Counted from the first letter of the stretch, positions 33,248-51,290 are shown. The stretch: DNA of 64,000 nt from Planctomicrobium piriforme (GCA_945871035.1 CAMBUD010000004.1:9001-73000); one strand, 5' to 3'. Made by a program: numbers and translations. Notes: generated from the sequence alone by a model not told the origin.

Positions 33248-35398
33248 TTACTTGCGGGCCAGCTTTTTTTGCTTGGAACGGACTGGTGCAGCAGAAGATG
33301 CTGCTGCTGGCACCGTCGCTCCTGGAATCATGGTGGGTACGATGATGCAGTTGTCACCCAGATCGAGGTCATCCTCTTCCTCGATGGGGCGACCGCGGTC
33401 ATCTAATTTTGTGTCGGCTTCAGCGGTCTTGCGTTTGGCTACATCGAGTAGGCGTTGGTAGAGTTTTTCCCGGTCGGCACCGTTGATGACCGAAACAGCC
33501 GTGGCGACTTCGCCGAGATACCGCAAGAAGATGCTGCGTCGCTGTCCTTCCTGCGCCACGCGCTGCCGCCGACGCATGTACATGCCAAACTTCCGCCCGA
33601 CAGCCTGCAGGGCCAGGCGGATTTCCTTGGTGATTTCTGGATAGGAGGCAATCGCTTCCTTCGATTCACTCGTAAAGGGAACCCAGACACTCGCCATGTG
33701 CACCATCACCGTCACCGGTCCGCTGGGCAGGCTACCGCGTGACTGCGACAGGCCGTACGACCGCCAATTGGTGGCGAGAATCGTTTGTGTCACCGCGCAG
33801 GCAGCGTACTGAAATTGCAGCGGCACACGGTTGGCATAGCGCAGCACCGTCATGTTTTGTCCTTCGTCGACGTTGACGTGCTGCATCGCCCCATGCAGAG
33901 TGGCGAGCGCATCTTTTTTGAGCTTCGCAGGAGATTGTCGGCTGACTAATTTTGCGGCATCCAAAATTTTGTCCGCCGCCTCGCCTCCCAAGCCGGCAAA
34001 TGTCGTCGTCAGAAATTGCCGCAGGCTTCGCGCATCGCTTTCGCTGACGAGTTCGGACAGCGCCTCAAGCGACACCTTCTGAGCTGCCGGACCGCCACCG
34101 TAGGCAAGCGCCGCTTCGATCACGAAGGGATTGCCACGGTAGACGCTTGGCGGCCGCGTGGCGGCGACAAAAAATTCTCCCGGCACAACTTGCCGGAGTC
34201 CGGCGAGCAATCGCTGTTCACCAATCGGCACAACGCAGTCGGTGGCCGGCGGTGGAATCTTTGTCTCTTGAATGGCCCGGTAGATGGCATCGGCCTCGCC
34301 CCGGCCAATCTTTGCGCAGGTGGCCCGCGTAGAGAGCTTGGCGGTATCACAGATTCGTTTAGCGACCCCGTGAGAAACGCGCGAGAATGAACTGGTGAGA
34401 AACTGTGTCACAGAAATCTTTGGATTGTCTTGCAGCATTGTCACCAGCCTGCCAAGCTCCACACCGTAGGGATGCGGCTTGATCTCGCGTGGCTCCTGCG
34501 GCAGATCGTAAGTCGAACGCTCTAGAATGCGTTCCGGTGCGTCCCCACTTTGAAAATGGATGCGAGCGTGCGGATTGGAAATCGCCGTCTGTTCCAGATA
34601 CTCTTCGACACTGCCACGGCCCCGCTGAAATTTGGCCTCCATCTCAATCGTTACGCGTGTGCCATGATTGATCGGCTCTCCCAGATCATTGGCGGCGATC
34701 CACTCAATGCCATGTTTGGCCATGAAATCGGCACCGCTCTTGCCGGCAGCAATGTCGATACCCGCTCCCTTGCCATTTAAAATCTCCGGGTGGTTTGTTT
34801 TTGTATCGATGCGCAGTTCGTAGTAGTGGGCTGGATCCTTAGCGGATATTTTTGAGATGATCTTCACCGGTTTTCCAGTGGTGAGAACGCCATACATGCC
34901 GGCAGCGGAGATACCGATTCCCTGCTGGCCGCGGCTCATGCGGAGGCGGTGGAATTTTGAACCGTAGAGCAACTTTCCGAAGATCAGCGGAATTTGTTTG
35001 CTGACAATGCCCGGCCCGTTGTCCTGAACACTGACGCGGTAACGGTTGTGGGAATGTTCTTCGATGTGCACCCAGATCTCTGGCAAGATGCCGGCTTCCT
35101 CACAGGCATCCAGCGAGTTATCAACCGCCTCCTTCACGCTGGTGAGCAGCGCTTTTCGCGGTGAGTCGAATCCCAGCAGGTGCCGGTTTTTGGCGAAGAA
35201 TTCGCTGACAGAAATATCCCGCTGACCGGCGGCGAGGGCCTGAGCAGTCGCCCGGCGCTTTGTCGGAGCGGTCGGAGCAGACGATTGACCGGCCAACACA
35301 GGTGGCTGGCTAGCGGCAACCTTTTCTGTTGCCACCGGTGCAGACACAGATGGACGGGCACGCGGCGAAGTTTTTCGCTGTTTTTTTGAGATAGGCAT
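33248..35398 (-). CDS. top6B: DNA topoisomerase VI subunit B (GHKL ATPase)
   Basis: 'ISVSEFFAKNRHLLGFDSPRKALLTSVKEAVDNSLDACEEAGILPEI', 'VQDNGPGIVSKQIPLIFGKLLYGSKF', 'SRGQQGIGISAAGMYG' match the Bergerat-fold motifs of archaeal Top6B as I recall them. Basic ~60-aa N-terminal extension and an acidic/basic C-terminal tail. Confidence 0.88.
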   Translation of the reverse strand: MPISKKQRKTSPRARPSVSAPVATEKVAASQPPVLAGQSSAPTAPTKRRATAQALAAGQRDISVSEFFAKNRHLLGFDSPRKALLTSVKEAVDNSLDACEEAGILPEIWVHIEEHSHNRYRVSVQDNGPGIVSKQIPLIFGKLLYGSKFHRLRMSRGQQGIGISAAGMYGVLTTGKPVKIISKISAKDPAHYYELRIDTKTNHPEILNGKGAGIDIAAGKSGADFMAKHGIEWIAANDLGEPINHGTRVTIEMEAKFQRGRGSVEEYLEQTAISNPHARIHFQSGDAPERILERSTYDLPQEPREIKPHPYGVELGRLVTMLQDNPKISVTQFLTSSFSRVSHGVAKRICDTAKLSTRATCAKIGRGEADAIYRAIQETKIPPPATDCVVPIGEQRLLAGLRQVVPGEFFVAATRPPSVYRGNPFVIEAALAYGGGPAAQKVSLEALSELVSESDARSLRQFLTTTFAGLGGEAADKILDAAKLVSRQSPAKLKKDALATLHGAMQHVNVDEGQNMTVLRYANRVPLQFQYAACAVTQTILATNWRSYGLSQSRGSLPSGPVTVMVHMASVWVPFTSESKEAIASYPEITKEIRLALQAVGRKFGMYMRRRQRVAQEGQRRSIFLRYLGEVATAVSVINGADREKLYQRLLDVAKRKTAEADTKLDDRGRPIEEEDDLDLGDNCIIVPTMIPGATVPAAASSAAPVRSKQKKLARK

Positions 35399-41193: not shown

Positions 41194-41235
41194 CTCGAGG
41201 CTCTTTGCTCGAGGCTCTTTGCTAGAGGCTCTTTT
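41194..41235. repeat. 14-nt tandem repeat x3 (CTCGAGGCTCTTTG, CTCGAGGCTCTTTG, CTAGAGGCTCTTTT) spanning the DUF1854 stop codon
   Basis: Read directly. The third copy encodes the last residues '...EKSL' plus the stop codon on the minus strand. Confidence 0.9.
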
Positions 41236-41755
41236 CAAACAGTCGGCGACTAAGGGCATCTAAGAGTGGAACACTTTTGATGAGATAGCGCACGCCAAAC
41301 ATGTCACTGATCACCGCACTTGCATCGGGCAGACGGATGATGTCGTCACAGTGGGCTACGATAAAACGCCGCTGCCCCCGATCGGTTTCGACCAACCACT
41401 CCGTCGGTTCGCGATCCGAAACAGATTCAATTCGCCTGATCACCGGTAGAAACTCACGCAGTGCAAGTTCCTCAATGAGCAGCGACTGTAGCGACGGTTG
41501 CAGTGCGGCGAGGGAATCGATCCACGCCAACTCCATGCCGTCAGCGGCAACGATTGCGACTGGCCCTTGAGGCGCAGAAATTGGAAAGGCACGTACGGCA
41601 TCGACATTGGTATGGCGCTGTCCTTGGCTGTCAATGCAATCGAGGCGACCATGTTCCTGCCGCTCCAGTTGCCAGTCAGCAATGGCCGCGCTGGTCGGTG
41701 GTGAGCCAGCGACCAGCGCGGGGAGAATCTTTTGTGGCGTGCGTGCGTCCTGCAT
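41222..41755 (-). CDS. DUF1854-family protein (cyanophycin-metabolism-associated type)
   Basis: 177 aa. 'RLDCIDSQGQRHTNVDAVRAFPIS', 'LAWIDSLAALQPSLQSLLIEELALREFLPVIRRIESV', 'EWLVETDRGQRRFIV', 'DMFGVRYLIKSV'. It lies 32 nt downstream of the ABC gene, the usual DUF1854 context as I recall it. Confidence 0.7.
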   Translation of the reverse strand: MQDARTPQKILPALVAGSPPTSAAIADWQLERQEHGRLDCIDSQGQRHTNVDAVRAFPISAPQGPVAIVAADGMELAWIDSLAALQPSLQSLLIEELALREFLPVIRRIESVSDREPTEWLVETDRGQRRFIVAHCDDIIRLPDASAVISDMFGVRYLIKSVPLLDALSRRLFEKSL

Positions 41756-41787: not shown

Positions 41788-44136
41788 TTAGGTTCCGGCG
41801 GCGGCGGCCTCGGCGGCCCGCGTTTGGGCGTGGTAGAGCCGTGCATAGGCGCCTTCGGCGGCAAGCAGTGCTTCGTGCGTGCCGCTTTCGACAATCACGC
41901 CCGCATCGAGCACGACGAGCCGATCGGCCCGTCTGAGCGTGGAAAGCCGATGGGCAATGGCGATTGTGGTTCGGCCTGTAACGAGCCTGTCGACAGCCGT
42001 TTGGATGAGCACCTCGGTTTCGGCATCAACGCTTGAGGTGGCTTCGTCCAGTACGAGAATCGCCGGATCGACCAGCAGCGCTCGCGCAATGGAGAGCCGC
42101 TGGCGTTCGCCGCCGGAAAGCGAGCCACCCCGTTCGCCCACACGCGAGTCGTACGCCGCTGGCAGCGCGAGGATGAATTCGTGGGCCCCGGCGGCCCGGG
42201 CAGCCGCCACGATCCGCTCACCCGACGCCTCTGGCCGACCGTAGGCGATATTTTCCGCAACGGTGCCAAAAAAGAGGAAAGGCTCCTGCAACACGCAGCC
42301 AAGATTGCGACGGTAATCGGAAATCGATAGTTCGCGTAGGTCCACACCGTCGACTTTGATCGTACCACTCGACGGATCATAAAATCGGCAAACAAGATTT
42401 GCGAGCGTCGTCTTCCCCGAGCCGCTTGTGCCGACCAATCCAACCATCTCTCCCGGTTCGATCACCAGATCGATGCCGTGCAGCACTTCGCGCGATCCAT
42501 AGCGAAAGTGCACGCCAGAGATTTCGATGCGACCGCGAACCCGTCCGGGCTTGATCGGCTGGAGGGCCTCGGCAACGGTTGGCTGACAGTCGAGCAGCTC
42601 AAAGATTCGCTGGGCGCTGGCCGCTGCACGCTGCGTGGCTGGCACCATGCGAATCATCGACTCGACGCGACCATAAAAACGCGCAATGTAGGCGAGGAAC
42701 GCGGTGAGTGCACCCACTGTTACCGCGCCATTGAAAACCAGCCAAGCGCCGGCACCCCACACCACCAACAGGCCTGCTTCACTAAAGAAGCTGATCAGCG
42801 GACCAAAAAATGACCAGACGATGTTGACGCGGTCGCTCGTCTCAAGCACGCGATCATTGGCCGCGCGGAAGCGATCGATCTCCCGCGATTCCTGCGCAAA
42901 TGCCTTGACAACGCGGATGCCGGGAATGGTATCGGCCAGCGTGCTAGTCATATCCGACCAGGCTACGTTGGAACGAATAAAACCACGACGCAGTCGGGAT
43001 CGCACGCTGTAGATGAGCCAGACAACTAATGGGAATGGGCCGAGGGTGACCACAGCCAAGAGCGGATTGATCCAGAGCAGCACAGTGGCCGTGAGCAGCA
43101 CCAGCATCACGTTGGATGAAAAATCGATCAGATTTGACGAGAGAAACGTGTTGATGCGTTCGGTGTCGCTGCCGACACGCGACATCAGATCACCGGTGCG
43201 CTTGCCGGAAAAGAAGTCGAGTGAAAGCGTTTGCATGTGGGAGTACGTGCGCACACGCAGATCGGCCGCCACTCGCTCGCTCACCCACGCCAGCGTCCAC
43301 GCCTGCGCCCAGGAAAGCAGCCAGGCGGCAACGGCTGCAGCTGTCAGTCCAGCGAGATACCACCACACAAGCGCAAACGGCACGGACTCCCCGAGTTGTC
43401 GAGGGATCAGCACCTTGTCCACCAGCGGCATCGTGAGGTAGGGGGGGATCAGCGAGACGGCGGTGCAAATGAGTGAGAGCATTCCGCCGAACAGCGCCAC
43501 GGCGGCGTGCGGCCTTGCAAAGGAAATAACGCGCACCAAGCTCCGCCAAGACGCAGTGGTTGTCCCGGCAGGCAGCCCCGACTCTTCATCGCTCAGCGTG
43601 AGCGTTGGATCAGTTGGCGTAGCATCTTCACGCAGATGCGTGCTCGTGCGGGTGGCTGCCTCATTTGCGCCCAGGGCATCGGCCCGGCTGTCGGCGAGGC
43701 GCTGGCCGTGCACCTGATTGTCAAAGGCGTCTTCGAGTGCCAGCACACCTTTCGCACGGGCCGGTGTAAACATCCAGCGTGCGATCACCCGATCGTGATG
43801 CGTCAACTCGAGTCGACCAACCGCTGCACGCATCGATACATGGATGTGCGTTTGAGAATCGAGTAACCACGACCACTGGGCAAGGCTTGTGGCTGGCTGT
43901 CGGGAGTCTGCTTTTTCATCGGCAGAGGCCGGTGTGTCGGCTAGGAGTCGGCGATCGGTGAGCACCATCCAGCCGTCGCTAAAGTGCAGGCTGGCATTCA
44001 GATCGAATCGACAGCTAGCCACGACAGATTCGCCCGGCTCCAACACAAAACGATCAACGCCAGGCGGTCCGCCCGCTGTGGAAATGCCAGCACTTGCCAG
44101 TGGAAAGGGGGATGGGCTGGGTATGGGAATGAGCAT
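41788..44136 (-). CDS. Fused ABC transporter permease/ATPase (exporter type) with ~195-aa N-terminal cytoplasmic extension
   Basis: Six-TM exporter region, Walker A 'GTSGSGKTT', signature 'LSGGERQRLSIARAL', Walker B 'ILVLDEATS'. The N-terminal 'FVLEPGESVVASCRFDLNASLHFSDGWMVLTDRRLLAD...GRLELTHHDRVIARWMF' looks like a bacterial PH (bPH) domain. Confidence 0.85.
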   Translation of the reverse strand: MLIPIPSPSPFPLASAGISTAGGPPGVDRFVLEPGESVVASCRFDLNASLHFSDGWMVLTDRRLLADTPASADEKADSRQPATSLAQWSWLLDSQTHIHVSMRAAVGRLELTHHDRVIARWMFTPARAKGVLALEDAFDNQVHGQRLADSRADALGANEAATRTSTHLREDATPTDPTLTLSDEESGLPAGTTTASWRSLVRVISFARPHAAVALFGGMLSLICTAVSLIPPYLTMPLVDKVLIPRQLGESVPFALVWWYLAGLTAAAVAAWLLSWAQAWTLAWVSERVAADLRVRTYSHMQTLSLDFFSGKRTGDLMSRVGSDTERINTFLSSNLIDFSSNVMLVLLTATVLLWINPLLAVVTLGPFPLVVWLIYSVRSRLRRGFIRSNVAWSDMTSTLADTIPGIRVVKAFAQESREIDRFRAANDRVLETSDRVNIVWSFFGPLISFFSEAGLLVVWGAGAWLVFNGAVTVGALTAFLAYIARFYGRVESMIRMVPATQRAAASAQRIFELLDCQPTVAEALQPIKPGRVRGRIEISGVHFRYGSREVLHGIDLVIEPGEMVGLVGTSGSGKTTLANLVCRFYDPSSGTIKVDGVDLRELSISDYRRNLGCVLQEPFLFFGTVAENIAYGRPEASGERIVAAARAAGAHEFILALPAAYDSRVGERGGSLSGGERQRLSIARALLVDPAILVLDEATSSVDAETEVLIQTAVDRLVTGRTTIAIAHRLSTLRRADRLVVLDAGVIVESGTHEALLAAEGAYARLYHAQTRAAEAAAAGT

Positions 44137-44520
44137 TGTAACAGGAGCAGCAAAGGAGCTTGAGATGCTTGAAATGACAAAAACAGACGTTTTTTACCGG
44201 CAGAGACCGTATAAATGGCCTTCCAAAGTCCGACCAACAGAATAGCATCTATCTTTCCGAATATCCCTAAATTAACCTTTTGTCTCAGGGCCTCTTTGCC
44301 GGTAATCGCCGGTAAGGAATGCCAGTAGCCCGTAATCGCTTTTCAAAAACGTCCAGCCCGAGCAGTAAAAAATACCCACCGACCCTCCAGTTTGCCTACC
44401 CAGTCGCGCATACGAATCATTAGCCATTCTATGAATTGCCCCTTGTGCGCTCCGCGTTACGTGCGTCTGCCAATGCCTTTGGACGCCTTAGAAAAAAATC
44501 GGATAGGGACGATCTTGTGT

Positions 44521-44537
44521 TGGCACGAAACGTGCAA
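44521..44537 (+). promoter_or_regulatory. Sigma-54 (-24/-12) promoter candidate facing cphA
   Basis: TGGCACGAAACGTGCAA versus consensus TGGCACG-N4-TTGCW. The GG and GC dinucleotides are at the canonical spacing, with a single mismatch (G for the first T of TTGC). It lies in a ~1 kb non-coding region. Confidence 0.5.
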
Positions 44538-45175
44538 GACTTTTATTTTGTCTGCCAGCGATTCGCAATCCCAAAAAGAAAGCGTAAGATTTGAATCGTG
44601 TTCTGCGAAGCGTTCGGTGCACGGGATCGACTCTTCGCAAGAGCAAGAGAATGAGAATGAGCAAGCGATCGCCATGGCCCCGAGGGCAGGCAGTCGATTG
44701 TTGAGTCGGTGTTTGATTGGTGACGGTGATGCAGCAGCGATGATTGGTTGGATTCATGGTGCCGCGAGAAACGCGCACCGCAAGCGAACGTGCGTCCGCG
44801 TGGCGTGCGGCGGTGCAAAGCGATCTTTCGGTGAGGGAAATTATTCGTCCCATGGCCCACTTGGCCGGTTTCTTGTCAGTAGGGATTCGTTCCCCCGCGT
44901 TGTGCTTTTGCCTGCCTGCAAAGGTCTTCCTTGCCAGAGGCATTTCCCCCGCAGCTCCCGACTGCTGGCCGCCCTGACGCCCCTACAGCTCAGCGTTGGT
45001 CGGTTGTCGATTTCTATAAAAATGGCTTCTCGGGCGACGCGCCCGGTCGGCCAGCCTGCGATTGGTGCAATCTTCCGCAAACAGTCCACCGGAATGTCCG
45101 CTGGCTGGAAGAGATGCACCCCACCAAAACCCACGCCCGCGTCTGCGTTTGGGTAAGAGAGTACGTTTTCCTTCC

Positions 45176-48100
45176 ATGGAGATTCAAACGCTCAAGGTTC
45201 TTCGCGGTCCCAACCAGTGGGCTTCGTTTCCGGTTCTTGAGGCGTGGGTAGACCTCGGTCGCCTCGAGGATTACCCCTCAGACACGATTCCCGGTTTCAA
45301 TGATCGGCTCATAGAATGGCTGCCGAGCCTCATCGAGCACCGCTGTTCAATCGGTGAGCGTGGCGGTTTCTTGCAACGTCTCCGCACCGGCACGTGGATG
45401 GGACACATCCTCGAGCACGTCACCCTTGAGTTGCAATCCATCGCCGGTCAGCCAGTCAGCTTTGGCAAAGCCCGGGAAACAGCAACACGCGGCGTCTACA
45501 AGGTAGTGATTCAGTTTAAAGAAGAATCGTTTGCCATCGAATGCCTCCACACAGCGCAGCGCTTGCTGATGGCCGCCATAGCCGGTGAAACGTTCGACGT
45601 GGCTTGCGAGATCAAGCGATTAAAAAAGGTGCTGCTCGACGTGCAACTGGGCCCGAGTACGCGATCGATTGTTGAAGCTGCAGCGGCGCGGGGTATTCCA
45701 ACGCGACGGCTCAACGATGGGTCGTTGGTTCGGCTGGGGCATGGAGCCAAACAGCGACGCATCATCGCTGCCGAAACCGACCGCACCGGCGCGGTCGCTG
45801 AATCGATTGCGCAGGACAAAGAACTCACGCGCACGCTCCTCCTCGAGGCCGGTATTCCGGTGTCCGAGGGGCGGCCGGTTGTGGATGCAGCCGATGCATG
45901 GTTGGCGGCTGAGGAAATCGGTGTGCCAGTTGTGGTCAAGCCCCGCTACGGCAATCAAGGGCGGGGCGTATCGGTTAGCCTTTTCACCCGCGCTGAGGTG
46001 GAAAAGGCTTGGCACGTTGCCCGTGAACAGGATTCAGCGGTTGTTGTCGAACGGTTTGTAAGCGGGAGCGATTATCGGCTGCTGGTTGTGGGCGGTGCGG
46101 TTGTGGCTGTGGCTCGGCGGCATCCCCCCACGGTCATGGGCACCGGTCAATTAACAGTGCAGCAACTCGTCGACCGCATCAATGAGGATCCGCGCCGCTG
46201 TGGCGACCATGCCGGGGCGTTGAGCCCGGTTGTCATCGATGAAGTGGCCTTAGCCGTTCTGGCTGAACAGGGCTTGGCATTGGAGAGCATTCCCGCGGCA
46301 GAGCGTCTTGTTTTTCTGCGTCAAAACGCCAATTTGAGCACCGGAGGGAGTGCCGAGGATGTCACCGACACCGTGCACCCAGCCGTTGCATCGCTGGCGG
46401 TTGAGGCGGCACGCATTATCGGATTGGATGTGGCTGGCGTTGATGTTGTCGCACTCGATATCACCCAACCGCTCGAGTTGCAACGCGGCGTTGTGATTGA
46501 AGTCAATGCTGGGCCAGGTCTGCGCATGCACATCGAGCCGACAGTGGGGACTCCACGTGCCGTTGGTGCCGCAATCGTCGACACGCTTTTCGCGCCCGGA
46601 GAAGACGGCCGCATTCCGGTCGCCGCCGTGACGGGTACCAATGGCAAGACGACCGTGGTGCGGCTGTTGGCCCATTTGGCCGCAGCGGGTGGCGCAACCG
46701 TTGGCACCACCTGCACCGAAGGGATTTGGGTGGGCAACCGACAGATCGACAGCGGCGACTGCAGCGGCCCCGCAAGCGCACGTCGCGTGCTTGCCAATCC
46801 ATTGGTGACAACAGCGGTTCTGGAAACGGCACGCGGTGGCATTCTTCGTGAGGGTTGTGGATTTGATCACTGTGATGTGGCGGTGGTGACAAATATTTCC
46901 TCAGGCGATCACTTAGGCCTCAACGAAATTGATACCCCCGAGCAATTGGCATGGGTCAAGGGGGCGATCGTCACGGCTGTGCAGACGAAAGGATCAGCCG
47001 TGCTCAATGCAGCCGATCCGCTCGTTGTTGCCATGAAACAATGGTGCAAGGGACAAGTTGTGTACTTCGCCTTAGATCCCAACAACCCAGTCCTCGTTGC
47101 GCACCTTGCTCAGGGAGGGCTGACGGCCACGGTGCGGGATGGTTGGATCGTACTCTGCGACGGTCCACGCGAAACCCGACTGGCGAATCTCGATCGCGTG
47201 CCACTTGTGCACCGCGGCATGATCGGCTTCCAAGTGGAAAACGTACTGGCGAGTGCCGCTGCGGCATGGTGCCTCGGAGTGCCACTGGAACTGGTGCGAT
47301 TGGGTTTGGAAAGTTTTTCATCTGGCTTAGCCGGTTCACCAGGGCGTTTCAATCTGCTCGATCTGGAAGGAACGTCGATTGTGGTGGACTACGGTCACAA
47401 CATCCCGGCACTCGAGCAAATTTGCGGAGCGATCCAGAAGATGTCACACGGCCGTCGCACTGCCGTTTATTCGGCCGCTGGTGACCGTCGCGACGAGGAT
47501 CTGATTGCCCAAGGCCGCTTGCTCGGGGCGACTTTTGATCGGGTCGTGATTTATGAAGATGCCTATGTTCGCGGTCGGCAACCGGGAGAAATCACCCGGA
47601 TGATCTCCGAGGGCATTGCGCAGGCATCGCGGCCGGGGCATCCCACCACGATCGAAGCGGGCGGCAACTGGTCTGACTCGGCAGCGCACGTACTCGATGC
47701 CGTGCAGCCCGGCGAGCTTGTGCTGCTGCAAGCTGATTCTGTGGAGCAGTCCATCCCCTGGTTGGAAGCGCACTACGGTAAGCGACTGCGGGAAACAAAC
47801 CTCGAGGAGATGGCGGGGCTGTCGGCGTACAGCCAACAGGAACGCGTGCCCGGACAGAGCGAACCAGTTGAGATCAAGAACGGCCATCTTGGCCGTGCCG
47901 CCTGTGCCGCTCGAGACTTGGCTGCCGGTGAAACGATCCTGAAGGCCTGGGGGCCGCAGTTGCCCAAACGCACGCGACACTCGATGCAGGTGGATGTTGA
48001 CACCCACATCCTGCCCGATGGAGTGGTCGTGCTTCTCAACCACTCCTGCACGCCTAATTGTGGTCTCATTATTCGCTCGGGCACCAAGGAGATCGAGGCC

Positions 48101-48331
48101 AGATCGCTGCGACCGATTCGGGCCGGTGAAGAACTCACATTCGACTACGAGACTTTTGAATACGAGATCGAGTACCTCAAAGGTCCGTGTCTGTGCGGAT
48201 CGGCTCAGTGCCGAGGACACCTTCGCGGCTACAAATATTTACCGGCAGATGTCAAGGCACGCTACGGCGAGTTCATTGCCGAATATCTGCGGGCACTGGA
48301 AGGCGAGATAACGGTTCCCATCGGGGCCTAG
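45176..48331 (+). CDS. cphA: Cyanophycin synthetase fused in frame to a C-terminal SET-domain methyltransferase module
   Basis: N-domain 'MEIQTLKVLRGPNQWASFPVLEAWVDLG', ATP-grasp 'VVVKPRYGNQGRGVSV', Mur-ligase-type P-loop 'VTGTNGKTT'. Residues ~898-1051 carry 'NHSCTPNC', 'ELTFDY' and 'CLCGSAQCRGH' (SET/post-SET). ATG 45176 chosen; the longest ORF starts at 45062. Confidence 0.9.
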   Translation: MEIQTLKVLRGPNQWASFPVLEAWVDLGRLEDYPSDTIPGFNDRLIEWLPSLIEHRCSIGERGGFLQRLRTGTWMGHILEHVTLELQSIAGQPVSFGKARETATRGVYKVVIQFKEESFAIECLHTAQRLLMAAIAGETFDVACEIKRLKKVLLDVQLGPSTRSIVEAAAARGIPTRRLNDGSLVRLGHGAKQRRIIAAETDRTGAVAESIAQDKELTRTLLLEAGIPVSEGRPVVDAADAWLAAEEIGVPVVVKPRYGNQGRGVSVSLFTRAEVEKAWHVAREQDSAVVVERFVSGSDYRLLVVGGAVVAVARRHPPTVMGTGQLTVQQLVDRINEDPRRCGDHAGALSPVVIDEVALAVLAEQGLALESIPAAERLVFLRQNANLSTGGSAEDVTDTVHPAVASLAVEAARIIGLDVAGVDVVALDITQPLELQRGVVIEVNAGPGLRMHIEPTVGTPRAVGAAIVDTLFAPGEDGRIPVAAVTGTNGKTTVVRLLAHLAAAGGATVGTTCTEGIWVGNRQIDSGDCSGPASARRVLANPLVTTAVLETARGGILREGCGFDHCDVAVVTNISSGDHLGLNEIDTPEQLAWVKGAIVTAVQTKGSAVLNAADPLVVAMKQWCKGQVVYFALDPNNPVLVAHLAQGGLTATVRDGWIVLCDGPRETRLANLDRVPLVHRGMIGFQVENVLASAAAAWCLGVPLELVRLGLESFSSGLAGSPGRFNLLDLEGTSIVVDYGHNIPALEQICGAIQKMSHGRRTAVYSAAGDRRDEDLIAQGRLLGATFDRVVIYEDAYVRGRQPGEITRMISEGIAQASRPGHPTTIEAGGNWSDSAAHVLDAVQPGELVLLQADSVEQSIPWLEAHYGKRLRETNLEEMAGLSAYSQQERVPGQSEPVEIKNGHLGRAACAARDLAAGETILKAWGPQLPKRTRHSMQVDVDTHILPDGVVVLLNHSCTPNCGLIIRSGTKEIEARSLRPIRAGEELTFDYETFEYEIEYLKGPCLCGSAQCRGHLRGYKYLPADVKARYGEFIAEYLRALEGEITVPIGA

Positions 48332-48375: not shown

Positions 48376-49446
48376 TTACTTGAGCCCCGGGCGGCGGTCC
48401 AGCGCGCCGCGAACGCCTAGTTGCTCGGGGTGGCGTGCGATCTTGTCGGTGAAGACGCGCACGTCGTCCACGATCGGTCGCAGTTCTTTCGTGATCGAAT
48501 TCACATTGGCAGCCGCTTGGGCAAGATCGTCGTAGACCTTTGGATCGCGTACGAGTTTGCCGAGCGTACCATCGGATTGGTTGAGCGCCTTGGTAAACAT
48601 GGCGGCTTGCTGCAGGACATCATCGAGGCGACCGATTGTGCGATCAACCTGAGCCACCATTTCCTCGCCGCGTTCGCCCAGTGGCCGTGTGAGTCCTTCA
48701 AGATTGCGCAAATTACGATCAGCAGTGTCGACTGTTGTGCTGATCCCCTTCACGGTGGATCGCAGATCGGCGAGCACTTCGGGCAGTGCTTCGATTGCCG
48801 CCTTCATCTTATCGCGGGCATTTGGATCGCCCATGACGTCATTGATGTTGTTCATGGCGAGGCTGAAGGACTCGAGCGCAATCTCAGTTTTATCTACCAT
48901 TTGTTTAAATTTGTCATCCTCACCCAGGAATAATTTGTCGAGATTTGTGGAGAGTTTGCTGACGGATTCGCTGGCAATTGTCAGTGAATCGAGGGCCAAG
49001 GCCAGCTTTGGTTCGAGCGACGCAAACGCTTCAAAGGGATCGCGACTGATCCCCCCAACAAGCACCTCATCTTTCCCGACGCGTTGGCGAGGCGGCACGA
49101 TCCGACCAGATACCAGAGAAATTTCCGCATCTCCCAGGAGAGAGCCGCTGATTTTCGGCTGCTCGTCACGATAGATCGGCACATAGGAATCGATGTCGGC
49201 AACCACACTCACTCCCCCGCGCTCATCGAGGACAATGCTGCCAACCCGTCCTACCAAGATGCCATTTTTACGAACAGGCGTTCCGGCTGACACGCCACGG
49301 GCATCTGCGAAGCTCATCCGTAAGGGGTAGCTGGCTTGCACCAGCGATGGCAGATCGCCAAACAACACGATCAAGATGCCCGCAATGATTGCCGTAGCAA
49401 GCACAAGGACCCCCACGCGAAATTGCATGACTCGCTCGTTCATCAT
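48376..49446 (-). CDS. mlaD: MlaD/MCE-domain protein
   Basis: N-terminal TM 'FRVGVLVLATAIIAGILIVLF'. MCE core 'GVSAGTPVRKNGILVGRVGSIVLDERGGVSVVADI'. Long helical C-terminal region. Confidence 0.8.
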   Translation of the reverse strand: MMNERVMQFRVGVLVLATAIIAGILIVLFGDLPSLVQASYPLRMSFADARGVSAGTPVRKNGILVGRVGSIVLDERGGVSVVADIDSYVPIYRDEQPKISGSLLGDAEISLVSGRIVPPRQRVGKDEVLVGGISRDPFEAFASLEPKLALALDSLTIASESVSKLSTNLDKLFLGEDDKFKQMVDKTEIALESFSLAMNNINDVMGDPNARDKMKAAIEALPEVLADLRSTVKGISTTVDTADRNLRNLEGLTRPLGERGEEMVAQVDRTIGRLDDVLQQAAMFTKALNQSDGTLGKLVRDPKVYDDLAQAAANVNSITKELRPIVDDVRVFTDKIARHPEQLGVRGALDRRPGLK

Positions 49447-49473: not shown

Positions 49474-50343
49474 TTAAGGGTTGCCAGTGGCCGCTGGTGC
49501 GGCGTCGGCCCGCGCTTGTTCATCGCGCATTTCGGTGAGCCGAGCGCCGGCCTTGCCTTCAATGAATTGGCAGATTCTAGGGTCGGTGGAGCGGTCAAGT
49601 TCTGCCGGAGTGCCGTCAAAAACAAGTTGCTCCTCATCCTCGCCAAGCCTAGTGAGCGGATAGAGCATGATGATCCGGTCCGCCACCTTACGAGCTGAAA
49701 TCATGTCATGCGTGACGATAACGCTCGTCACGTGCTCGCGCGATCGCACGCGCATCATCAACTCATTGATGACATCGCTCATGATCGGATCGAGTCCTGT
49801 GGTTGGCTCGTCGTACAGCACCAGATGCGGATCGAGGGCAAGGGCACGAGCTAGGCCGACTCGCTTGCGCATGCCCCCGGAGAGTTGCACAGGCTTTTTT
49901 TGTCCCACGGAACCGGGGAGGCCCACCTCGGTGAGCAGCGCACTGACGATCTCCCGGATTTCAGGCTCTTTCAGGAGGGTGTGTTCGCGCAGCGGAAAGG
50001 CAACGTTATCGGCAATCGTCAGGCTGTCAAAAAGAGCCGCCCCTTGAAAGACAAATCCATATCGGGTGCGCATGTGGCCCAGATCAGCCTCACTCATGTG
50101 TGCTAAGGAGGAGCCTTCCAATCGCACCCCACCCTCCGAAGGTCGTACCAAGCCGATCATAGTTTTTAGCAGCACTGTTTTACCGCAACCGCTCTCGCCC
50201 AGAATAACCAGCGTTTGACCCGTTGGGATATCGATAGAAATCCGTCGCAGCACGTCTTGCTTACCAAAACTCACGGAGAGCGCAGCGATCTCAAGCAGCA
50301 TCGGCTTGGTTGCATCTAGGCGATTGGTGTTGGTGGTTGGCAT
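49474..50343 (-). CDS. mlaF: ABC transporter ATP-binding protein (MlaF-like)
   Basis: Walker A 'GESGCGKTV', signature 'LSGGMRKRVGLARAL', Walker B 'LVLYDEPTTGLDP'. ATG 50343 chosen so that it does not overlap mlaE. Confidence 0.85.
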   Translation of the reverse strand: MPTTNTNRLDATKPMLLEIAALSVSFGKQDVLRRISIDIPTGQTLVILGESGCGKTVLLKTMIGLVRPSEGGVRLEGSSLAHMSEADLGHMRTRYGFVFQGAALFDSLTIADNVAFPLREHTLLKEPEIREIVSALLTEVGLPGSVGQKKPVQLSGGMRKRVGLARALALDPHLVLYDEPTTGLDPIMSDVINELMMRVRSREHVTSVIVTHDMISARKVADRIIMLYPLTRLGEDEEQLVFDGTPAELDRSTDPRICQFIEGKAGARLTEMRDEQARADAAPAATGNP

Positions 50344-50396
50344 ATGGCAGTGTTGTGGATCAAGCTCAGTAGAGAGTCGGCGGAGTGCGTCAGTTT

Positions 50397-51290
50397 TTAG
50401 AGCAGCCTGCGGGGACCTTCGGGACGGAAAAAGTCGTGGACATTGTCGAGCCCAATTCCTAGAAATAAGTCGAGCACAAGGATCAGAACAAACGAATGCA
50501 CGAAGGCATTGGTCGCTGCTCGCCCCACGCCTTCGGCGCCAGGAGTGCAGTTGAATCCACGGTGACAACTCACCAGGGCAATGGCGGCCCCAAAAAAGAA
50601 GCTCTTGAAGATGCCCATCAGGAAATCAAAGGCGTCGACGTATTCGCGCGAATTATTCCAGTAATGGTGGTAGTCGATGCCCAGCAGCAGGTGCGAATAG
50701 AGATAACCCCCCAGCACACCCATAAAATCAGCCATAACGGTGAGCGTCGGGATCAGAATGAGGCAGCCAAGAAACCGAGGCACAACCAGATAATAAATAG
50801 GATTTGCCCCCATGCTCTCCATCGCATCGATCTGTTCAGTCACACGCATGGTGCCCAGCTCGGCAGCCATTGCGCTGCCCACGCGTCCTGCCAACATAGT
50901 GGCTGCCAGCACCGGACCGAGTTCGCGCACAAGCGAGAGGTTGATCACCGCTCCGAGTCGCGTCTGCAGACCGAGGGCCTTGAATTGGGCAAAACTTTGC
51001 ACAGCCAGCACCATGCCGATAAACAATCCCGTCAGCGCCACAACCGGCAGGGAGAGCACGCCAATCTGGTAGAAACTCGGCAGCAGAACATCTCGTCGCT
51101 GCCGCCGCGAGAAAATCCAGCCCAGCGTCTTGAGGGAGAAGATCGTCACATCTCCGATCCCAGCCACGCGACTCAGTGCAAACGAGCCGAGATTTGCAAT
51201 CTGGACTGCAAACCAAGCAGTCAGTCCACCGGCAGCAGCAGGCGCGTTTGCCCGAGTCGTTTCCGCCGGTGCTGTGGGTGTGGATGCCAT
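50397..51290 (-). CDS. mlaE: ABC transporter permease (MlaE-like)
   Basis: 297 aa, multi-TM. 'FYQIGVLSLPVVALTGLFIGMVLAVQ', 'LVRELGPVLAATMLAGRVGSAMAAELGTMRVTEQIDAMESMG'. Confidence 0.85.
   Translation of the reverse strand: MASTPTAPAETTRANAPAAAGGLTAWFAVQIANLGSFALSRVAGIGDVTIFSLKTLGWIFSRRQRRDVLLPSFYQIGVLSLPVVALTGLFIGMVLAVQSFAQFKALGLQTRLGAVINLSLVRELGPVLAATMLAGRVGSAMAAELGTMRVTEQIDAMESMGANPIYYLVVPRFLGCLILIPTLTVMADFMGVLGGYLYSHLLLGIDYHHYWNNSREYVDAFDFLMGIFKSFFFGAAIALVSCHRGFNCTPGAEGVGRAATNAFVHSFVLILVLDLFLGIGLDNVHDFFRPEGPRRLL

Follow-up and report, generated by a model that had tools for sequence, protein, structure and literature searches.

Cyanophycin is seen as a chemically simple polymer of Asp-Arg (or Asp-Lys) that a single enzyme makes without tailoring steps, and it attracts interest both as a bio-based polyamide and as a source of dipeptides. 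To our knowledge, no characterised cyanophycin synthetase 1 (CphA1) carries a methyltransferase domain. SET enzymes methylate the N-epsilon of lysine, with few exceptions such as BurB, which acts on the sulfur of Met. Here, we describe a gene (cphA-SET) in a 64,000-nucleotide stretch of DNA from Planctomicrobium piriforme (GCA_945871035.1, CAMBUD010000004.1:9001-73000; the whole stretch is called the window below), in which a full-length cyanophycin synthetase continues in frame into a SET module that may tailor the side-chain units of the polymer.

Several described systems provide points of comparison. CphA1 consists of N, G, and M domains, and the P-loop Lys of the M domain is essential in TeCphA1 (PMC9427784). 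In two beta-proteobacteria, a DUF1854 protein, an ATP-binding cassette (ABC) transporter, and cphA/cphA' are cofit, and Price et al. proposed that an amino-acid polymer is exported to the envelope and not stored (with DUF1854 as a proposed transporter subunit) and that some CphAs linked to ABC and DUF1854 genes may make a different polymer (bioRxiv 10.1101/072470). BurB encloses free L-methionine in a sealed pocket, where the amino acid is bound mostly by main-chain contacts (R70, T73, V130, and M132) and receives the methyl group on its sulfur (PMC12542666).

A cyanophycin synthetase with an in-frame SET module

The open reading frame (ORF) listing of the window gives an uninterrupted frame from 45062 to 48331 on the plus strand, in which the ATG at 45176 leads to a 1051-aa product (beginning with MEIQTLKV; MEIQTLKVLRGPNQW) whose N-terminus and length agree with those of all homologs. 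The gene ends with a TAG stop codon at 48329-48331, no in-frame stop is present between 47700 and 47900, and GC content shows no break across the junction between the CphA and SET parts. Its features are as follows (AF2, AlphaFold2; dN/dS, ratio of nonsynonymous to synonymous substitution rates).

45176..48331, plus strand: cphA-SET fusion gene, 1051 codons and a TAG stop; product 100% identical to protein P0121
45176..45655, plus strand: CphA N domain (residues 1-160); PF18921 (Cyanophycin_syn) matches residues 24-134 with 134.8 bits
45656..46585, plus strand: CphA G domain (ATP-grasp, residues ~161-470) with RimK, ATP-grasp, and CPSase_L_D2 matches
45929-45970 and 46325-46348, plus strand: G-domain motifs VVVKPRYGNQGRGV and NANLSTGG, respectively
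46586..47770, plus strand: CphA M domain (Mur-ligase-like, residues ~471-865) with Mur_ligase_M and Mur_ligase_C matches; P-loop VTGTNGKTT at 46628-46654
47771..47869, plus strand: variable linker (residues 866-898), the first part of which is the C-terminal tail common to SET-less CphAs
47870..48328, plus strand: compact, complete SET methyltransferase module (residues 899-1051), assigned from PF00856, PDB matches, alignment, AF2, Foldseek, and dN/dS
47882, 48038-48061, 48131-48148, and 48188-48211, plus strand: SET-module motifs GHLGR, NHSCTPNC, ELTFDY, and post-SET CLCGSAQC, respectively
48152-48172, plus strand: family-specific acidic loop TFEYEIE of the SET module; a C-terminal two-helix extension follows from 48227

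Five types of Pfam domains, all exceeding their curated cutoffs, are arranged along the product in the order Cyanophycin_syn N domain (residues 24-134), RimK/ATP-grasp (212-316), Mur_ligase_M (485-697), Mur_ligase_C (723-851), and SET (910-991). The CphA part has the sequence hallmarks of CphA1, namely the N-G-M domain order and the ATP motifs KPRYGNQGRGV, NANLSTGG, and TGTNGKTT (P-loop), and residues 3-864 match the cyanophycin synthetase equivalog model TIGR02068 with 1055.4 bits (cutoff 850), while NF010623 gives a score of 1188.4 (cutoff 877). Motif VVVKPRYGNQGRGV occupies residues 252-265 and VTGTNGKTT residues 485-493; in the tail, GRAACAARDLAAGETI is found at residues 906-921, NHSCTPNC at 955-962, ELTFDY at 986-991, and CLCGSAQCRGH at 1005-1015. 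The linker between the two parts contains indels between clades and has a predicted local distance difference test (pLDDT) score below 50 at residues 883-890 in a full-length AF2 model. On its domain content, the gene product is predicted to be a bifunctional enzyme composed of a full cyanophycin synthetase, a flexible linker of ~33 aa, and a full SET module that is presumably catalytically competent.

The tail matches PF00856 with 43.9 bits in the whole protein and 49.0 bits when searched alone (cutoff 22.4), and all elements of the SET signature are present, including the N-terminal GxG-type strand motif GHLGR, NHSCxPN, and the Tyr of ELxF/YDY. Its first match among PDB sequences is BurB (9L4T, E-value 9.6e-12), followed by SET1, MLL, SETD2, ASH1L, and NSD; the BurB alignment spans 119 of 183 query residues with ~30% identity and includes the C-terminal extension behind the post-SET region. 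The AF2 model of residues 899-1051 has a pLDDT of 92.4 and a predicted TM-score (pTM) of 0.85, and Foldseek relates it to SET structures with a probability of 1.00. The best query-normalised TM-score (TMq) was again obtained for BurB (0.69 over 150 columns), those for MLL (MLL1/4), SETD2, ASH1L, and NSD being 0.58-0.66, and the secondary structure of the model suggests a minimal SET-I region like that of BurB. These sequence and structural matches place the tail in a subfamily of compact bacterial SET domains to which BurB is related. In an alignment of 36 subfamily members (A1), H58, C60, and N63 of NHSCxPN, D92, and the post-SET residues C107, C109, and C114 are invariant and Y93 is nearly so (at least 90%); C1005, C1007, C1012, and C958 of the product, all four invariant in this alignment, may form a zinc site. 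Pairwise dN/dS values are 0.04-0.15 for the tail and 0.04-0.09 for CphA, with dS saturated so that they are qualitative evidence only, and indicate that the tail is under purifying selection. Together with the conserved residues, such selection suggests that the tail could bind S-adenosylmethionine (SAM) and transfer its methyl group.

The original prediction, made from the sequence alone, had described a single 1051-aa ORF at 45176-48331 with a SET domain fused in frame to full-length CphA1, which agrees with the ORF listing and with the TIGR02068 and PF00856 matches above cutoffs. Each of the motifs it quoted (ATP-grasp, VTGTNGKTT, SET, NHSCTPNC, ELTFDY, and CLCGSAQCRGH) was found at the expected place, and its assignment of the tail to the SET family holds in the profile search (PF00856) and the predicted fold, along with the motifs and purifying selection. 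The start that it gave for the SET part (47867, residue 898) is matched by standalone homologs, which align from residue 899. It had also proposed a linker of ~25 aa; the linker does exist, but its length had to be corrected to ~33 aa (from the end of the CphA model at ~865 to residue 899), or ~40 aa if counted to the first quoted motif.

SET modules fused to, next to, and absent from cyanophycin synthetases

CphA homologs of more than 1000 aa with a SET tail, whose conservation as a clade had been raised as a possibility in the original prediction, do form such a clade: a whole-protein search detected at least 74 protein clusters of 1044-1079 aa and 65-100% identity, all of which contain PF00856. 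Mean identity to the window protein over these 74 fusions is ~79% in the CphA part, 66% in the tail, and 46% in the linker. The 90% cluster of the window protein itself has 60 members, and 1051-aa copies are located on more than 40 contigs of up to 169 kb (NCBI, JGI, ENA, and Logan). Five GTDB species representatives (Pirellulales and Planctomycetaceae metagenome-assembled genomes, MAGs, from freshwater lakes; L014-L018) also possess the fusion, two of the bin labels looking unreliable. The tail-only search is topped by short "SET proteins" (P0002, P0004, P0006, P0008, and others), which represent C-terminal pieces of the fusion, with CphA sequence (VVIYEDAYIRGRQPGEIT...) passing directly into SET. 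We disregarded a profile search of a representative library for counting fusions, as the 1051-aa clade was missing from it, probably because clustering at 50% merges this clade with SET-less CphAs.

A frameshift or a chimeric assembly was considered and rejected, since the ORF is continuous in every assembly examined and identical or near-identical copies occur on many independent contigs. Recurrence on more than 40 independent contigs excludes such artefacts for practical purposes, and the possibility named in the original prediction that resequencing might split the ORF into two genes finds no counterpart in these data. In an independent MAG with a syntenic locus (GCA_026400965.1, JAPLNT010000036.1; L001:7193-10348), only a 115-aa "SET domain-containing protein-lysine N-methyltransferase" is annotated, with no gene over the preceding 3.8 kb. 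The underlying DNA nevertheless contains the 1051-aa cphA-SET ORF intact, with 87% identity to that of the window. In public records the fusion proteins are labelled only "cyanophycin synthetase" (e.g., NDC53975.1, MCE9629399.1, and MFM8734022.1), and annotation pipelines may hide the CphA-SET fusion systematically.

The same SET subfamily is also encoded by standalone genes of ~153 aa (152-153 aa when beside cphA), whose products are 43-55% identical to the fused module and coincide with it at both start and end. Among six standalone genes that were sampled, three (L002, L005, and L097) directly follow a cphA that lacks SET and share its strand. At L095 (4328-6462), the standalone SET gene keeps the downstream synteny of L005 and L097 (Fer4_13, glyoxalase, and ketol-acid reductoisomerase), and the place expected for cphA is occupied by genes for an FAD (flavin adenine dinucleotide) amine oxidase and an HD-domain protein and by an IS110 transposase. 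Those of L006 and L096 are located elsewhere.

A second, distant clade of CphA-like-SET fusions was found, comprising P0249 (980 aa), a 978-aa protein from a Gemmatales MAG (JBBQPM010000073.1; L019:7559-13168), and P0255 (954 aa; L020:5671-8535). The G domain of this clade is degenerate, with ~70 residues including NANLSTGG deleted and KPRYGNQGRGV decayed, and the P-loop of the M domain is intact, which implies that SET travels with the side-chain-adding function of the M domain. In the Gemmatales locus, an intact cphA (846 aa) follows the degenerate cphA-SET in tandem, recalling the cphA/cphA' pairs of beta-proteobacteria. The case made by the original prediction is thus extended: as the subfamily is found both as a separate gene downstream of cphA and in a second fusion clade, its functional link to cphA is a genetic one and not a one-off event. 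Within 10 kb of SET homologs from outside Planctomycetota with identities of 45% or lower (Actinomycetota, Erythrobacter, Burkholderiales, archaea, and others), no cphA was detected. The SET subfamily and cphA are genetically partnered in Planctomycetota, as a fusion or with the SET gene immediately downstream.

Close relatives of the window enzyme without SET were found in loci of the same synteny (L009-L013), where DUF1854 and ABC genes are divergent upstream and MlaD, ABC, MlaE, and ClpB genes are convergent downstream. These CphAs have 908-914 aa and are 77% identical to the CphA part of the window protein, and no SET gene occurs within 6 kb of them. Remnants of the linker and of the beginning of SET persist at their C-termini (e.g., PTPEPVAVP versus SEPVEIKNG). 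A neighbour-joining (NJ) tree of the CphA part gives the fusions a basal, paraphyletic position, with SET-less forms nested among them at three or more points. This topology fits a fusion that was ancestral and in which SET was then deleted repeatedly, the number of losses being tentative given short internal branches and the use of NJ only; SET has apparently been deleted in some close relatives with identical synteny.

A profile search of 1.84 billion representatives detected 97 relatives of the SET module with E-values of 1e-30 or lower. One of them (P0295; L094:8001-9656) is a 551-aa protein that combines a Lys/Orn-type pyridoxal phosphate-dependent decarboxylase, closest to Lys/Orn decarboxylases, with a C-terminal SET domain 44% identical to the window tail. 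Further fusion partners within the subfamily include DDL-type ATP-grasp ligases (P0243, P0363, and P0382), a short-chain dehydrogenase, and an M29-like peptidase domain, and decarboxylase or ATP-grasp genes adjoin other members (L042, L057, and L064). Several long members (P0241, P0242, P0243, P0245-P0247, and P0254; 600-1480 aa) contain 5-9 tandem SET-like stretches. The decarboxylase and ATP-grasp partners point to amino-acid or peptide tailoring, as judged from this comparison of contexts, over histone-like protein methylation. We had also taken the decarboxylase-SET fusion as proof of Lys/Orn N-methylation, a claim that is withdrawn: because the pathway partner of BurB is itself an S-methylmethionine (SMM) decarboxylase, P0295 cannot tell N- from S-methylation and could be either a fused BurI/BurB-like sulfonium pathway or an N-methyl-diamine pathway.

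A possible tailoring role and competing explanations

On balance, we favour the explanation that SET is a tailoring methyltransferase whose target is the cationic side-chain unit that the M domain uses, which would yield a methylated cyanophycin-like polymer that is possibly exported. In such a scheme, the M domain would attach the cationic side-chain unit to the poly-Asp backbone, and the target of SET would be either the amino acid while still free, immediately ahead of ligation, or the side chain immediately afterwards; the acceptor could be a nitrogen of Lys or Arg or the sulfur of Met. Methylation of the free building block appears as likely as the co-synthetic methylation of the polymer suggested in the original prediction, since BurB acts on a free amino acid and other subfamily members are fused to a Lys/Orn decarboxylase or to ATP-grasp ligases. 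The contact segment RxH[ST]xQ of BurB is kept in the tail (RTRHSMQ), and the loop at 130-133 of BurB (V130-R133, DVLMR) is replaced by the acidic TFEYEIE, which is conserved in the family and, by inference from its charge, would suit a cationic substrate. Two genes upstream of and divergent from cphA-SET extend this scheme towards export.

41788..44136, minus strand: cyanophycin metabolism-associated ABC transporter (MsbA-like exporter); NF052233, 1012.6 bits (cutoff 880); divergent from cphA-SET
41222..41755, minus strand: cyanophycin metabolism-associated DUF1854 protein; NF052234, 153.3 bits (cutoff 150)

The transporter, which has an N-terminal extension of ~200 aa in the window, is syntenic in L001, L002, L005, and L009-L018. 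Because the locus carries this cphA-associated pair, the polymer may be exported rather than stored, with the ABC and DUF1854 proteins as the putative export system.

A number of observations weigh against a tailoring role. The SET module is accessory and dispensable, given SET-less relatives in identical synteny, and half of the six standalone SET genes (L095, L006, and L096) are not next to cphA. Only five of 905 columns of CphA plus linker separate SET-bearing from SET-less proteins and all five differences are conservative, so a re-tooled M-domain pocket in the SET-bearing enzymes, which we had considered, is unsupported. A docking of SET on CphA read from the full-length AF2 model was likewise discarded as uninformative, that model (built with 27 close sequences) being poor (pLDDT 59.6, pTM 0.39). 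With respect to the substrate, we know of no precedent for arginine methylation by a SET domain, and Arg is the usual side chain added by CphA1; canonical Asp-Arg cyanophycin is therefore not an obvious substrate, and a Lys-containing polymer or a free amino acid would be a more natural acceptor. Finally, the tail is about equally similar to SET1/MLL protein-lysine methyltransferases (E-value ~1e-10) and to BurB (1e-11), and because the substrate contacts of BurB are main-chain atoms, sequence comparison cannot predict specificity.

The similarity to SET1 and MLL raises the question of whether SET is instead a conventional protein-lysine methyltransferase that modifies CphA (in cis or across the oligomer) or its ABC/DUF1854 partners and regulates activity, assembly, or localisation, leaving the polymer unmodified. 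The canonical lysine-methyltransferase signature (NHSCxPN, ELTFDY, and the post-SET zinc cluster), strong similarity to SET1, MLL, and SETD2 (E-values from 1e-10 to 1e-8), and the Foldseek probability of 1.00 would all be expected in that case; fusions often serve to tether an enzyme to the protein on which it acts, and the standalone genes away from cphA would suit a more general protein target. However, neither a candidate target Lys nor any other non-conservative CphA position was found to co-vary with the presence of SET, which is weak negative evidence only; the SET-I region, which forms the peptide groove of histone methyltransferases, is predicted to be minimal as in BurB, the structure with the best TMq; and the partners of the subfamily elsewhere are small-molecule enzymes (decarboxylase, ATP-grasp ligases, and short-chain dehydrogenase). 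Altogether, we regard protein methylation as unlikely. A BurB-like conversion of free Met to S-methylmethionine, either as a separate function co-regulated with cphA or as the supply of a sulfonium amino acid to be ligated by the M domain, seems less probable still. Although BurB is the best PDB sequence match with the highest query-normalised TM-score, and its work with an SMM decarboxylase finds an echo in the decarboxylase-SET fusion P0295, the identity is low, the Met-contact segment is the very one replaced by the acidic loop, the decarboxylase half of P0295 is nearest to Lys/Orn enzymes, and genes for SMM decarboxylase, aminotransferase, and aldehyde dehydrogenase (BurI, BurD, and BurE types) are absent among the neighbours in the window and in the syntenic loci.

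We consider it very improbable that the tail lacks any CphA-linked function and represents either a passenger, inert or in decay, or an artefact of assembly or annotation. Such a view could draw on the close relatives that manage without SET and on the public annotation that splits off a 115-aa gene. That call is no proof of two genes, as it starts at an internal Met and would miss the N-terminal SAM-binding strands found in all standalone homologs; moreover, the ORF is continuous throughout, catalytic and zinc-binding residues are invariant, dN/dS is far below 1, and two independent fusion clades and a conserved adjacency to cphA are observed.

Returning to methylation of the side-chain unit, a bolder and rather doubtful version is that the locus makes a new biopolymer, i.e., a poly-Asp backbone with methylated and possibly permanently cationic side chains that is exported to the cell envelope and does not serve as an internal nitrogen store. 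N-epsilon-(tri)methyl-lysine, methyl-arginine, and the sulfonium S-methylmethionine may be candidate groups, with SET feeding or following the M-domain active site. Full-text literature searches found no paper that links cyanophycin synthetase with a SET or any other methyltransferase domain, and the cyanophycin gene survey of the Schmeing laboratory does not mention one, in line with the statement in the original prediction that described cyanophycin synthetases lack a methyltransferase domain. Both CphA and SET are known families and the sequences are already public; what is new is a CphA1 with a built-in tailoring domain. A conserved and selected methyltransferase module on the synthetase would imply that modified cyanophycins exist in nature. 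If the tailoring role is true, the module would be the first tailoring domain in a cyanophycin synthetase, would offer an enzymatic route to methylated polymers of different charge or solubility, and would add a new class of SET substrate (a non-ribosomal polyamide or its monomer) beyond protein lysines and the methionine of BurB. The combination of SET with the ABC/DUF1854 pair also bears on the question of whether some CphA products are exported envelope polymers and not nitrogen stores.

Surrounding genes and comparison with known systems

The 1-kb intergenic region between the ABC transporter gene and cphA-SET (44137-45175) is relatively AT-rich (GC ~0.50) and of similar length in L001. 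Neither a riboswitch nor any other Rfam family was matched in it, and scans for promoters and terminators stayed at background level without a convincing sigma-70 candidate. On the other side, a gene for MlaD (48376-49446) is convergent with cphA-SET, from whose 3' end it is separated by 44 nt, and, together with genes for an ABC ATPase and MlaE, forms an Mla-type system. The ATPase (49474-50568) and MlaE (50397-51290) ORFs, both on the minus strand within 49474-51290, overlap by ~170 nt as listed, and translation of the ATPase probably begins at a codon inside the listed ORF. The remainder of the window encodes a YTV-repeat protein, ClpB, the Mla system, ThiD2/ThiE, LpxB, glycogen synthase, and Topo VI-B, as in an ordinary planctomycete chromosome. 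The Topo VI-B match (33248-35398, minus strand; NF003218, 651 bits) corresponds to subunit B of DNA topoisomerase VI, an enzyme that is characteristic of archaea and plants but not often found in bacteria. No S51 cyanophycinase was detected among the 33 window ORFs scanned, which are not every ORF, and its absence from 64 kb says little.

Compared with the CphA1 enzymes of Synechocystis (SuCphA1) and Trichodesmium (TeCphA1), residues 1-865 of the window protein are collinear and the G and M motifs are intact, whereas ~150 aa of SET are added after the linker, and genes for an ABC exporter and DUF1854, but none for a cyanophycinase, were found at the locus among the 33 ORFs scanned. The tail shares with BurB of Burkholderia thailandensis (PDB 9L4T/9L4V) a compact bacterial SET architecture of ~150-170 aa with minimal SET-I, a post-SET CxCx4C motif, and a C-terminal helical extension, as well as the SAM-contacting His of NHSC/LHSC and the His of RxH[ST]. 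It differs from BurB in its sequence (~30% identity), in the loop (DVLMRQF in BurB versus the acidic TFEYEIE), in its partner (CphA here versus the dimethylsulfoniopropionate enzymes BurI, BurD, and BurE), and in that BurB itself is a free-standing tetramer. With the protein lysine methyltransferases SET1/MLL and SETD2, it has in common NHSCxPN, the Tyr of ELTFDY, the PCLCG..C.G post-SET zinc motif, and the predicted fold (TM-scores of 0.58-0.66), but it is without pre-SET or chromatin-reader domains, its SET-I is minimal, its host is a bacterium, it is fused to a non-ribosomal amino-acid polymerase, and it has no apparent protein substrate. The beta-proteobacterial cphA/cphA', ABC, and DUF1854 clusters (bioRxiv 10.1101/072470) belong to another phylum and have no reported SET domain or gene, yet they show the same partnership of CphA with an MsbA-like ABC transporter and DUF1854, and the tandem degenerate and intact cphA genes of the Gemmatales locus resemble their cphA/cphA' arrangement.

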